Source: Chthoniobacterales bacterium (GTDB lineage: Bacteria; Verrucomicrobiota; Verrucomicrobiia; Chthoniobacterales; UBA6821). From it: a stretch of 64,000 bases of DNA. Positions 60,001 to 64,000 of the stretch are shown here, piece after piece (within the stretch, counting starts at the first letter, position 1; each line of letters starts with the position of its first letter). A program made the position numbers. The stretch is from assembly GCA_049314455.1 (NCBI GenBank), contig JBMOFC010000006.1, positions 747 through 64,746 of the forward strand, in the 5' to 3' direction.

Positions 60001-63000
60001 TTCTTATTTTTCTTTTTGTTCCTGGATTCAAATTATTCGAGTTGTTTCCCTTTGCTCAAGGAATTAGGGCTCCTTGGTCCCTATGGCAACTGGGTGGTTC
60101 TCTTTTTTTAGCAGCTCTTTTTGGATGTGCTGCCAGTCTTTTCGTTACTTCTCTTCGTGAAATTTTTTTACAGAAAATCTGTACTGCTGCACTACTGCTC
60201 TTAGTGATGTTCGATTTTTCTCCCTATTTATTTTTTTACCATCAAGGTGCTTTGAGAGAAGGAATCTACGATGACTTTTTAAAAACTACTGATTTTTTAA
60301 AACAAGACTCTTCGCACAGTAGCATCATGCCGTTCTCGGGTCGCTATTTTTATCTTCAGCTACCCTCGCTAACAGGACATCCGATCGTCGATGAAGCCTT
60401 TAATCGTTATTTTGAATTAAAATGGGTTCGCTCTTTAGGGAATTCTTTGAATTCTACCGAGTTCAAAGAATTGCTCAACCTTCTTGGAGCTTCCTATATT
60501 TTTATCGATAAGGAAGACCCCACTACAACTAAGCAATCTCAAGATCTCTATCGCTCTTTTTATCCCGTCGCTTTTGAGAACAACTCCTTTCTTATTTTAG
60601 AAAACAGAAGTTCATTATACCCAGCGTTTTTAGCCCGTGATTTTGTCGTCTTTCCAAAAGAGAGTTACTTGCTGGCCAAGGGTTCCTTACAGCTTGCGTC
60701 GATGAATTTAGTAACGCTTGAAATGACAGAAGCGAATCCTCGAGAACTTGGCTTTGCAGGAGTCGCTAAAGGAGGTAATCAGATAGAGCTTTTACCCAGT
60801 TATAAAGATCGCGGAGGCGCTCCCTTTCAACACTTCGATGCAGCCGATCCATTGACTGATCATGATCAAAAAATGACCTACCAGGTTCCCTCAGCAGCCT
60901 CTGGATGGTTTGTGGTGACCAAGGCCTTTCACCCCGATTGGCAAGGAACTGTGGATGGTCAACCTGCAAAGATTTATCGTGCGGCAGGGGCGCTTCTTTC
61001 ACTCTACATTCCACTAAACTCCCAGGAGATTGTTTTTAAATTTCATCCTCCTTTTTGGTATACGCTTTCGTTCTATTTTGGGATTCTCAGTTGGTTCTTG
61101 GCATTGGCTTTTTTCTTCCTGATTCGGAGTCGCTGGGCTCCTGCAAGGTGGAAAGAGTGGTGGAGAGAAGAATGAATAATCGTTCTGAGTAAAACTATAA
61201 AAGCCATGAATTTCATTTCTAAAAACTCATTCACCTTCCATAATGAAGCGTCTTCTGGGGAAGATCAAAAGTCTTGGTTAAGGGATAATGTTGCACTTGA
61301 TCCTGTGTTGGGAGTTAAAATTTCTAAAGCCAATAGTGATCCTGCTACTACTACTGTGAGAACAAGAACGGCAGCAATAAGTCAAGATCTCGATACTTCA
61401 TTAAGTTTTCCGAGCTCTTCGTTACATCAAGATGATGAAGGTGGTACCTCTTCACAATCTACATCTAGATCAAGTTCCATTTCAGCAATAGAGCCTTCAG
61501 TTATTGAAAAAACTTTTGCAACCGTAGGAACACAAACTGATCATTTAGGAAAAAAGCTTACTGAAGAACAAGATGCTGAAAAACAAGGTGCTAGTCACCA
61601 TGATCAAGTTGAAGAGGTTCAAAAAGCAGTTGCTGGTGACGGAGTCATTACTGCTTCTGTTGAAAAAATATCTTCTGCTTCAGACGAACTTGCCGAAGAA
61701 AGTATTGGTCTCATTAAATTATCCCCTGAGGAAAAAGAATTGTACGAAGAATACAAATCAAAAATTTCAAATAAAGACCCACGAGAGAAGTTAAGTGCAG
61801 GGTTGACCTTCAAAAAGCTTTTGGAGTCTCTTAGTTCAAGAGAGCATCCTGATCTTGAAAGTAATTTTGAGAAGGAGCCATTTGAGGGAGACTATAAGGA
61901 TGACATCAAGTTGCGTCATATTCGTGATTTTGCGACACACCATCCGGACAACTTTATAATCTCTTTTGATCATGTATTGAAGGACATGTATCATGAAGAC
62001 CATGTTGTTTTTAAACAAGCACTCACTGAGTATCTGGTTTCCAGGGAAATTTTGACTAAGAGGCTGGGAAAACTTGTTTCTAATGAAGATATGCTTCTGT
62101 TAAAATTTTTGGTCGAAAAAAAAGCAAGACTTGAGGATGCTATTGAGTCACTTGAGTCGATAGAGAGGGCAGTCAAGGTAGATAATGAAGAGAGAGAAAA
62201 AGAGATTTATGCCAAAGCATACCCAGATAGTGATCCTGCTGCTACTACTGTGAGAACAAGAACGGCAGCAATAAGTCAAGATCTCGATACTTCATTAAGT
62301 TTTCCGAGCTCTTCGTTACATCAAGATGATGAAGGTGGTACCTCTTCACAATCTACATCTAGATCAAGTTCCATTTCAGCAATAGAGCCTTCAGTTATTG
62401 AAAAAACTTTTGCAACCGTAGGAACACAAACTGATCATTTAGGAAAAAAGCTTACTGAAGAACAAGATGCTGAAAAACAAGGTGCTAGTCACCATGATCA
62501 AGTTGAAGAGGTTCAAAAAGCAGTTGCTGGTGACGGAGTCATTACTGCTTCTGTTGAAAAAATATCTTCTGCTTCAGACGAACTTGCCGAAGAAAGTATT
62601 GGTCTCATTAAATTATCCCCTGAGGAAAAAGAATTGTACGAAGAATACAAATCAAAAATTTCAAATAAAGACCCACGAGAGAAGTTAAGTGCAGGGTTGA
62701 CCTTCAAAAAGCTTTTGGAGTCTCTTAGTTCAAGAGAGCATCCTGATCTTGAAAGTAATTTTGAGAAGGAGCCATTTGAGGGAGACTATAAGGATGACAT
62801 CAAGTTGCGTCATATTCGTGATTTTACCAAACACCATAAGAGTAACTTTATAGTCTCCTTTAATAATACATTGAGGAGCATGTATCGTGAGGACCACGGT
62901 GTTTTTAAACAAGCACTCACTGAGTATCTGGTTTCCAGAGAAATTGCTACTGAAAGGCTGGGCGGCAAAAACTCTCATCTGGAAGATAGATTTTTACTAA

Positions 63001-64000
63001 AATTTGTGGGCGAAAAAAAAACAAAGCTTGAGGATAGTATTGAGTCACTTGAATCGCTAGAGCGAGCAGTAAAAGAAGACAAGGAGGAGAGCGATAGAGA
63101 ATATTATGCCAAAAAATACCCAGGCTTAACGCCCGAAGAAGCCATGCAAAAATCACTCGAAGAAGATGATTGATTTTTCATAAGAATAATGAGTTCTTCG
63201 AATAATTCTTGATGAAGGAAAAAGCTGCGCTACATTCTTTTCTCCGCATGGTTGTGAGAATTTCTCCTTGCGACTAGCGCGCTTCTTTCTTTTTCTATGC
63301 ACACACTCTCTATTCGCAATCTTCATGCTTCTATCGGTGAAAAGCCGATTCTTCGAGGTCTCAACTTAGACATTCCACAAGGGGAGGTGCATGCCATTAT
63401 GGGCAAAAATGGTTCGGGCAAAAGTACCTTAGCTAAGGTCATGGCTGGACATCCTGATTATACGGTGACTTCCGGGGATGTGCTTCTGAATGGCGAGAGT
63501 ATTTTAGAGATGGAACCCGATGCACGTGCGCGCTTGGGTTTATTCTTAGCATTTCAATATCCGATGGAAATTCCAGGAGTGACGATTGCCAATTTTATCC
63601 GAGCAGCAGTACAAGCCCGTCTTCCTCAGGGGGAGGAGCTAGAAGCAACTGAATATTATGCGGAGCTCTATTCCAAGATGGATGCGCTGAGTATTCCGCG
63701 TAACTTTACTGCACGTTCGGTGAATGAAGGTTTTTCCGGTGGCGAGAAAAAGCGATGTGAAATCCTGCAGATGGCCATGCTCAAGCCACGCTATGCGGTG
63801 CTCGATGAAACCGATAGTGGTCTCGACATTGATGCCCTTAAAATCGTCTCCTCAGGAGTCAATGCCTTGCGCAGTCCTGAAGTCGGCATGCTCGTTATCA
63901 CTCACTATCAACGTCTCCTCGACTACATTGTCCCTGACAAAGTGCATGTGATGGCCGAAGGAGAAATTGTCTTGAGCGGAGGAAAAGATCTTGCACTGAA

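Follow-up and report, generated by a model that had tools for sequence, protein, structure and literature searches.

The source of the sequence is a contig from a metagenome-assembled genome (MAG) of an uncultured Chthoniobacterales bacterium, represented by one assembly, of which we analyzed a window of 64,000 nucleotides. Toward its end lies a 655-amino-acid (aa) open reading frame (ORF), which we refer to as gene X (positions 61206 to 63173, forward strand; NCBI MFZ4115540.1, locus tag ACOYK6_02310). Repeat finding and global alignment identified two in-frame units placed head to tail within this ORF. Unit 1 (61333-62226) is 894 bp long and unit 2 (62227-63123) is 897 bp long, both multiples of 3, which agrees with the 894-bp in-frame tandem duplication starting at 61333 and 62227 described in the original prediction. 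We divided each unit into a 5' block (A1 or A2) and a 3' block (B1 or B2) (Table 1). B1 runs in frame into A2, with TACCCAGAT on the left of the junction and AGTGATCC on its right, and B2 runs into a short tail homologous to those of related proteins. The gene upstream had been taken to encode a large envelope protein; it does encode a polytopic membrane protein, but its identity is indicated by a weak YfhO match (PF09586; E value, 2.3e-6; 26.7 bits, below the 28.5-bit cut-off); a PF09586 assignment is likewise precomputed for this protein (P0008). An Rfam scan of the whole 64-kb window returned zero matches, and an RNA element was thus ruled out as a reading.

Table 1. Positions of gene X, its repeat blocks and predicted domains, and its neighbors within the window
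Feature	Position	Strand	Remarks
YfhO-like upstream neighbor, 788-aa polytopic membrane protein	58809..61175	+	Pfam PF09586, C-terminal part
Gene X, acidic orphan protein with duplication	61206..63173	+	ORF
Unique N-terminal 42 residues, unduplicated	61206..61332	+	Inter-unit homology ends immediately left of 61333
A1, homogenized block of unit 1 (Ser/Thr/Glu-rich stretch and predicted helices 1-4 of domain copy 1)	61333..61931	+	598/599 identical to A2
Sole A1/A2 difference	61347 (A) vs 62241 (G)	+	ACT Thr48 vs GCT Ala346; 14 nt inside the unit boundary
Predicted helical domain copy 1	61701-62226	+	Starts at aa 166
B1, diverged block of unit 1 (predicted helices 5-7 of domain copy 1)	61932..62226	+	Ends at the duplication junction
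39-nt run in B1 identical to B2 (about 62900-62938)	62006..62044	+	Encodes VFKQALTEYLVSR, the most conserved motif of the family
A2, homogenized block of unit 2	62227..62825	+	Global alignment
Predicted helical domain copy 2, 192 aa, part modeled	62595..63170	+	AlphaFold2
B2, diverged block of unit 2 (predicted helices 5-7 of domain copy 2)	62826..63123	+	Alignments
Unique C-terminal tail GLTPEEAMQKSLEEDD and stop codon	63124..63173	+	Homologous to the tails of single-unit orthologues (YPE..LEEAR..W)
sufC, downstream neighbor	63297..64000	+	Runs off the window end; 91-93% identical to the sufC after every orthologue

Divergence between the units changed abruptly along their length. In the MAG assembly, the A blocks matched at 598 of 599 bases. 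From 61932/62826 onward, the codon alignment of the last ∼295 bp (the B blocks) gave 228 identical bases out of 297 (76.8%), with 69 substitutions, one 3-nt indel, and 66 of 100 residues identical. Had the A blocks diverged at the rate of the B blocks, the probability of at most one difference in 599 bases would be 3e-67, and about 50 synonymous and 91 nonsynonymous differences would be expected across the 200 codons, compared with the 0 and 1 observed. Matching between the A blocks extends to the very limit of homology and includes the 14 nt that separate the sole difference from the duplication junction. That sole difference was correctly called as an A/G change, but it lies at 61347/62241, one position from the 61346/62240 reported earlier; the peptide strings quoted with it were correct.

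The B blocks carry the marks of long-term constraint. Between B1 and B2, dS was 0.53, dN was 0.22, and dN/dS was 0.42. Differences were spread over the three codon positions (24/20/25) and comprised 40 transitions and 29 transversions; at the differing sites, every base was found in B1 (A, 20; G, 20; T, 18; C, 11) and in B2 (A, 30; G, 19; C, 14; T, 6). All family-invariant residues were retained in both, and both domain copies stayed under purifying selection. These values argue against diversifying pressure on the 3' module, which had been offered as one cause of the step, as does the position of the switch inside a single predicted domain (see below).

As had been noted, Ser, Glu, and Lys are abundant in the protein, which is acidic (pI 5.0) and contains zero Cys. 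Each unit is predicted to consist of a Ser/Thr/Glu-rich stretch, which is probably disordered (S+T, 23%, and D+E, 20%, in the A1-encoded stretch), followed by a seven-helix domain. For domain copy 2, AlphaFold2 with a seven-sequence alignment gave a seven-helix model (pLDDT, 85.8; pTM, 0.77); single-sequence AlphaFold on the full 655 aa was uninformative (pLDDT, 44). The switch between identity and divergence falls at residue 78 of the 192-residue domain, at the end of helix 4 (residues 66 to 80). Because this point lies inside one predicted fold, we interpret it as a recombination endpoint rather than a module border. No Pfam or NCBIfam model reached its cut-off for X, and searches of Pfam, NCBIfam, PHROGs, and PADLOC with X and three orthologues gave only subthreshold noise, the scores of which were partly inflated because the duplicated sequence was counted twice. 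The seven-helix domain had no match in Pfam, PDB sequences, or Foldseek-PDB. Thus, the earlier statement that the protein has no recognizable domain holds for curated libraries, but a conserved helical domain is present and defines a small orphan family.

This family is tiny and confined to metagenome assemblies of Chthoniobacterales. Exhaustive phmmer and profile searches recovered just seven members besides the query record: five full-length single-unit proteins and two fragments (230 and 91 aa), which together represent four single-unit sequence types. Four independent samples yielded one of the orthologues (320 aa) without a single difference in sequence. The proteins of five other lineages (P0002, P0003, P0005, P0006, and the L009 protein) are positional orthologues, all with a single unit and 262 to 323 aa long. 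At these loci the gene order is YfhO-like membrane protein gene, X, sufCBD, and a YfhO-like homologue lies upstream of every X-family gene found; X and sufC are separated by 54 to 123 nt. A comparison of unit number across the five lineages, one of the checks proposed in the earlier note, found no multi-unit orthologue, and the doubling is therefore lineage specific. Identity between B1 and B2 is 66%, whereas either shares just 29 to 40% with any orthologue, so that the duplication is younger than the split from the nearest known relative. Organisms that are closer by their YfhO-like protein (64 to 71% identity) share the order ffh-rpsP-HAD-YfhO-like, after which come glyA and G6PD or other genes. 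They are without X and so were of no use as near outgroups. The family evolves fast: omega was 0.25 to 0.27 for X, compared with 0.03 for sufC and sufB.

We found no other copy of this organism's gene. Exact-protein look-ups with X, the YfhO-like protein, and the HAD protein returned none, and the sole database identity to the X protein was its own record. Neither a protein-pattern scan nor an exact 29-mer scan for X matched JGI metagenome contigs, and viral contigs gave no match. The GTDB representative genomes contained just two loci, both distant and single-unit. Because a second strain or assembly of the organism was not found, the ancestral diverged state of the A blocks and any polymorphism are unobservable.

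The step in divergence described originally is real, and recent homogenization of the 5' part explains it best. We consider it probable that the duplication is old and that its 5' 599 bp were homogenized recently by intragenic gene conversion. The ancestor of X would have been a single unit with a short N terminus, a Ser/Thr/Glu-rich stretch, a seven-helix domain, and a short tail. Tandem, in-frame duplication of 298 of its ∼357 codons, in the lineage of the MAG, would then have given N-[A-B1]-[A-B2]-tail. This duplication would be old, judging from the dS of ∼0.5 between the B blocks. Much later, the 5' part of one unit would have been copied onto the other without reciprocal exchange, through one or several events of RecA-type intragenic conversion in which the units paired within one chromosome or between misaligned sister chromosomes. 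This would have wiped out the differences accumulated over ∼600 bp, ending at 61931/62825, inside helix 4.

This order of events, conversion as the homogenizing mechanism, and any consequence of it are what we infer; the sequences themselves show the duplication, the step, the one-unit state of the orthologues, purifying selection on the B blocks, and a switch placed within the predicted fold. Measured bacterial conversion events extend ∼500 nt on average in each direction (PMC5485169), which makes a block of ∼600 bp plausible. The pattern resembles the concerted evolution of Salmonella tufA and tufB, where nonreciprocal overwriting produces a sharply bounded identical block within otherwise diverged duplicates (PMC5485169). 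Unlike tufA and tufB, which are separate genes, the duplicates in X lie 894 bp apart within a single reading frame, of which they are the two halves, and the event in X is inferred from one sequence. It is important to note that the block in X also reaches the edge of homology, whereas in the tuf model a conversion running to the end of homology is abortive (PMC5485169). A single conversion ending at most 14 nt from that edge would therefore be somewhat unlikely (∼2% if endpoints are uniform), and identity that reaches the edge calls for several successive events, mutation after conversion, or a different history.

One such history, which we regard as unlikely, is that the whole unit was duplicated recently, so that A1 and A2 are still the same, and one B block was replaced later. 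In its simplest form, homologous recombination would have replaced B2 and the tail with sequence from an unseen paralogue or from a diverged allele carried by a related strain, with the highly conserved sufC as the right-hand anchor. This would account for identity that begins exactly at the duplication junction without special pleading. It also fits the state of the equivalent region in relatives, which is a mosaic of interstrain recombination: between L001 and L002, dS was 0.05 for the epimerase, 0.29 for X and the YfhO-like gene, and 1.9 for the GT2 gene. Comparison with outgroups gave conflicting signals. The closest relative, P0002, shares 8 exclusive residues with B2 and 1 with B1, as expected of a replaced B2, but the asymmetry reverses against the other four outgroups (9:6, 7:4, 6:4, and 4:2). 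Rates in B1 and B2 thus differed in no consistent direction, and the relative-rate test identified neither as the native B block. Replacement would moreover need a left crossover in a stretch of good donor/recipient identity just upstream of 62826. That is unexpected for a 23%-diverged donor, given that, within the family, the A region is the half that evolves faster, and the window and L010 cannot be aligned there. Searches covering 5.8 billion clustered proteins and 1.84 billion representatives found no paralogue or donor allele.

The original caveat that long repeats can mislead assembly is apt for a sequence from a MAG, and an independent assembly was not found. An assembler could have collapsed A copies differing by up to ∼1 to 2% into one graph node and written it twice, and the true number of units could also differ from two; the surviving difference lies 14 nt from unique flank, where a de Bruijn assembler could presumably still phase a variant. 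We nevertheless think it quite unlikely that the two-unit structure, or at least the complete identity of the A blocks, was made by the assembler. The difference of 23% between B1 and B2, with the unique in-frame junction from B1 to A2, means that the reads must hold at least two units; given that this junction is real, neither a strain bubble nor a collapsed single unit could give the arrangement. The strain bubble is ruled out also by the right-hand flanks, which differ between B1 and B2. Further, the last >100 nt of the A blocks, beside the unique B blocks, show no differences where phasing would work. The true divergence of the A blocks is thus at most about 1%, compared with 23% for the B blocks, and the step would survive a slight exaggeration of the identity. 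We give very little credence to a recent duplication followed by positive selection or hypermutation of the kind produced by diversity-generating retroelements (DGRs), limited to the B blocks. The sharp boundary and the generally fast evolution of the family are all that speaks for it, and a near-identical stretch adjoining a variable one in the same gene is indeed what DGR targets look like. Unlike DGR targets, however, X has differences that are not adenine specific, that fall at all codon positions, and that include an indel. The dN/dS below 1 and the high dS point to purifying selection, the variable part holds the most conserved residues of the family, and the boundary lies inside a helix of one predicted domain. 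The substitution spectrum effectively refutes DGR-type mutagenesis.

The suggestion of a surface or secreted protein with copy-number-variable repeats was not supported. We found no signal peptide (the N terminus, MNFISKNSFTFHNEASSGEDQ..., has no hydrophobic core, and those of the orthologues are hydrophilic too), no hydrophobic or transmembrane segment in the whole protein (maximum 19-residue Kyte-Doolittle value, 0.69), and neither an LPXTG-type wall-anchor motif nor a membrane-anchor segment in the C-terminal sequence (ending ...MQKSLEEDD); the five orthologous lineages have one unit each. The gram-positive surface proteins alpha C/Rib of group B Streptococcus, Esp of Enterococcus, and SasG/Aap of Staphylococcus contain long identical tandem repeats. 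Like them, X has long in-frame units (hundreds of base pairs) that are identical at the DNA level, for which gain and loss of units by recombination is expected. In those proteins, signal peptides and wall anchors are combined with many fully identical units and beta-rich repeat folds, whereas X has no signal peptide, showed no anchor in its C-terminal sequence, and has only two units identical over two-thirds of their length, an all-helical predicted domain, and one-unit orthologues. The Ehrlichia effectors TRP32, TRP47, and TRP120 are acidic, Ser-rich tandem-repeat proteins without an N-terminal signal peptide. By analogy only, X is similar in being acidic, Ser-rich, probably disordered in part, and repeated in tandem without a signal peptide, but it showed no sequence or fold similarity in any library and is a doubling of a whole protein, not an array of short repeats. 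We know of no secretion system or host association for this organism. Nor did X resemble a Suf component (SufA, SufE, SufU, or SufR) in Pfam or NCBIfam; it has no cysteine, and its position directly upstream of sufC is the only link. As a low-confidence guess, X could be an intracellular or nonclassically exported protein-binding or scaffold protein in which the doubling provides two slightly different binding domains.

The duplication and partial homogenization of X are real, yet an ordinary kind of event. If conversion occurred as proposed, X would be a clean natural case in which the doubling of a whole protein, followed by partial homogenization, left a divergence step within one gene, with a converted block that cuts through a predicted folded domain and ignores module borders. 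The analysis also flags a small Chthoniobacterales-restricted orphan family with a confidently predicted helical domain that is without a match in the structure libraries searched, and with a fixed place between the gene for a YfhO-like membrane protein and the suf operon. Current understanding is unaffected by either point; their practical value is a caution for the annotation of long perfect repeats in MAGs and a small lead on Verrucomicrobiota-specific proteins. Perfect direct repeats of ∼584 bp, 894 bp apart, are predicted to recombine readily, and in-frame one-unit (N-A-B2-tail) and three-unit variants would then be expected in the population. It is a distant prospect that X founds an undescribed, lineage-restricted, fast-evolving family with a new seven-helix domain, encoded by the first gene before sufCBD, in which these repeats serve as a recombination switch giving one-, two-, and three-domain isoforms. 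This would, if true, place a copy-number-variable protein beyond the usual class, that of surface proteins with signal peptides.

Two smaller features of the sequence deserve mention. The 39-nt identical run is the longest in the B blocks (permutation P = 0.0011) and encodes a motif that the whole family conserves; either a second small patch of conversion or simply strong constraint may lie behind it. The GC content of gene X is low (38%; GC3, 28%). Horizontal acquisition was rejected as the source of this low GC, since the L010 orthologue is similarly below its own surroundings, and low GC is thus a compositional trait of the family.

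Repeat detection and global alignment identified two head-to-tail units in the 655-aa product of gene X (ORF 61206-63173, plus strand). Over their first 599 bp (A1 and A2), the units differed at a single base, A/G at 61347/62241 (Thr48 to Ala346), a difference that the original prediction had recognized but placed one base off. The 3' blocks (B1 and B2), in contrast, were identical at 228 of 297 bases in a codon alignment (69 substitutions and one 3-nt indel) and had 66% amino acid identity, which confirms the predicted step from near-identity to divergence. If A had diverged as B did, the probability of one or no difference in 599 bases would be 3e-67; ∼50 synonymous and 91 nonsynonymous differences were expected in A, and 0 and 1 were observed.

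Coordinates of gene X units, neighboring genes, and other elements in the window
Feature	Position	Strand	Remarks
Unit 1	61333-62226	+	894 bp, multiple of three
Unit 2	62227-63123	+	897 bp, multiple of three
A1	61333-61931	+	first 599 bp of unit 1
A2	62227-62825	+	first 599 bp of unit 2
B1 / B2	start 61932 / 62826	+	diverged parts of the units
HAD gene	starts 57799
YfhO-like gene	starts 58809
sufC	from 63297		downstream of X
MITE-like copy, 266 nt	23328-23593		opposite orientation to 190-nt copy
MITE-like copy, 190 nt	28321-28510		opposite orientation to 266-nt copy
Partial MITE-like copies	50918-51090, 48648-48687		left end only kept
Dispersed intergenic 114-nt repeat	23217-23330, 52495-52608		86% identical
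Dispersed intergenic 88-nt repeat	34163-34250, 58532-58619		76% identical, hairpin GCCGCTAAAGCGGC
Overlapping small gene pair	54948-55256, 55238-55681		102 and 147 aa, just upstream of ffh

The only identical database entry was MFZ4115540.1, a hypothetical protein on a 67-kb contig of a MAG labeled Chthoniobacterales bacterium, and curated family libraries gave no match above the cutoff. Three relatives came from an exhaustive phmmer search of 1.84 billion representatives; a few others turned up in a profile search of 5.8 billion clusters, and one more in the GTDB representative genomes. All were single-unit proteins of 262 to 323 aa, or fragments of such, and the single-unit relatives aligned to one unit plus the C-terminal tail of the window protein; the N termini of two orthologues (P0003 and P0006), judged by eye, loosely resembled that of the window protein. 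Where a taxon label was present, it was that of a Chthoniobacterales or Chthoniobacter MAG; the remaining relatives came from unlabeled metagenome contigs. At three loci (L001, L002, and L004), the gene order was GT2, YfhO-like membrane protein, epimerase (opposite strand), X, sufC, and sufB, followed by sufD in L001 and L002, where the contig extends far enough. The locus of the closest relative, L010, had the order HAD, YfhO-like, X, sufC, sufB, and sufD, which the window matches exactly from HAD to sufC. X was directly 5' of sufC on the same strand in every case (gaps, 54 to 123 nt). Its distribution is patchy, since other relatives (YfhO-like protein, 64 to 70% identical) kept ffh-rpsP-HAD-YfhO-like and had no X at that place. 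Between L001 and L002, the orthologous loci of two Chthoniobacterales assemblies, dS was 0.05 for the epimerase, 0.14 for sufB, ∼0.29 for sufC, X, and the YfhO-like gene, and 1.9 for GT2, a contrast that indicates mosaic interstrain recombination around the glycosylation genes adjoining X.

Each unit begins with ∼120 residues that are hydrophilic, rich in Ser, Thr, Asp, and Glu, and probably disordered; the remaining ∼175 to 190 residues are the part conserved across the family. For this part, AlphaFold2 with a seven-sequence alignment predicted a seven-helix domain (pLDDT, 85.8; pTM, 0.77), which had no significant match in a PDB sequence profile search (best E value, 0.015, a designed protein) or in Foldseek searches of the PDB (best, 0.34) and viral models (best, 0.12). 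Copy 1 of the domain begins at residue 166 and copy 2 at residue 464. The copies first differ at residue 78 in the 192-residue model, within the final turn of helix 4 (residues 66 to 80); helices 1 to 4 are identical, and helices 5 to 7 are 66% identical. Because the switch cuts through one predicted fold, it resembles a recombination endpoint rather than a border between differently selected modules.

B1 and B2 had a dS of 0.53, a dN of 0.22, and an omega of 0.42. Their differences were even across codon positions (24/20/25) and affected every base in both copies (40 transitions and 29 transversions), which argues against diversifying selection, suggested earlier, as the cause of B divergence. 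Adenine-directed DGR mutagenesis of B was also excluded by this all-base, all-codon-position spectrum. Both copies retained 19 of 19 family-invariant positions, and neither was consistently nearer to the outgroups. Between orthologues, omega was 0.25 to 0.27 for X, 0.025 to 0.03 for sufC and sufB, and 0.13 to 0.27 for the YfhO-like gene. The domain of the window X was 29 to 35% identical to that of L010, with the N-terminal half unalignable, compared with 75% for HAD, 66% for YfhO-like, and 92% for SufC. By these values, X evolves fast and is under net purifying selection that is weak. It was stable within one species, with an identical 320-aa product in four samples and one substitution in a fifth assembly. 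The GC content of X was 38% and its GC3 28% (neighbors' GC3, 36 to 38%); as the L010 orthologue was also below its locus average (37.6% versus 40.4%), low GC seems to belong to the composition of this Lys/Glu/Ser-rich family rather than to indicate recent transfer.

The window derives from a MAG, which makes the original caution about an assembly artifact apt, and a search for an independent assembly of the source organism found none. A collapsed single unit or strain bubble was ruled out, as B1 and B2 are 23% different and have different right-hand neighbors: B1 continues in frame into A2, and B2 continues into the orthologue-like tail. An assembler could misstate the number of A-B1 units or merge two A copies differing by up to about 1% into a single consensus, and the sole retained A difference does lie at a site that can be phased, 14 nt from unique sequence. 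However, >100 nt of A next to the unique B blocks also lacked differences; true A divergence is therefore very low, and the step is real.

B1 and B2 were closest to each other (66% identity; 29 to 40% for either against any orthologue) and all orthologues were single-unit, which places the doubling in this lineage after its split from the L010 lineage, long enough ago, it appears, for dS to reach ∼0.5. Across the family, A is the half that evolves faster, and its divergence should at least equal that of B; its identity therefore points to recent homogenization. We propose that an old in-frame doubling came first and that the A part was homogenized recently, with intragenic gene conversion as the simplest mechanism. 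The ∼600-bp block fits measured bacterial conversion, which has a mean extension of ∼500 nt in each direction (PMC5485169). The left edge fits conversion less well than other details: identity reaches the very edge of homology, including the 14 nt from the junction to the single difference, whereas in the tuf model conversion reaching the end of homology aborts (PMC5485169), so that conversion would have to have occurred more than once or to have used an annealing step for which very little homology suffices. The main biological rival, in which the duplication is young and a diverged allele later replaced one B block, explains this edge naturally and has a parallel in the mosaic interstrain recombination of relatives' equivalent region (L001-L002 dS of 0.05, 0.29, and 1.9 in adjacent genes), but its donor must be identical just before the switch yet 23% diverged beyond it, and the searches found neither a donor nor a paralogue. 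Within B, a run of 39 identical nt (62006-62044; permutation P = 0.0011) could mark another small conversion patch or could stem from constraint on the most conserved motif of the family. The feature is real, well defined, and ordinary in kind; it adds one more case of tandem duplication with partial concerted evolution, here within an uncharacterized orphan family. Its structure predicts recombinational loss or gain of an A-B1 unit between ∼584-bp perfect repeats.

The X protein (pI 5.0) has no signal peptide, hydrophobic segment, or cysteine. The proposal of a surface protein, lacking its defining features, is unsupported. The one contextual clue to function is that X is consistently adjacent to sufCBD, and the sequence gave no sign of iron-sulfur chemistry: the window protein is devoid of cysteine and matches no Suf family. 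Very tentatively, X could be a protein-binding or scaffold protein that combines an acidic, disordered arm with a helical domain and that was doubled in this lineage.

Elsewhere in the window, the rpsP-HAD gap (57316-57798; ∼480 bp) contained just unconvincing ORFs on both strands, and Rfam gave no RNA family there or in the rest of the 64 kb. The small gene pair upstream of ffh, judged by eye, looks like a HigB/HigA-type toxin-antitoxin candidate; it was absent from the otherwise syntenic relatives L011, L013, and L015, where a thioredoxin-domain protein gene or another gene precedes ffh. The second copy of the 88-nt repeat lies between the HAD and YfhO-like genes and coincides with a terminator-like match on the minus strand. 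Intergenic MITE-like elements have 24- to 25-nt terminal inverted repeats (CTAGCCCGGATATTTCACACTAATC ... GATCAGTATGAAATATCCGAGCTAG); the 266-nt copy, which the 114-nt repeat adjoins, differs from the 190-nt copy by an internal ∼94-nt segment.
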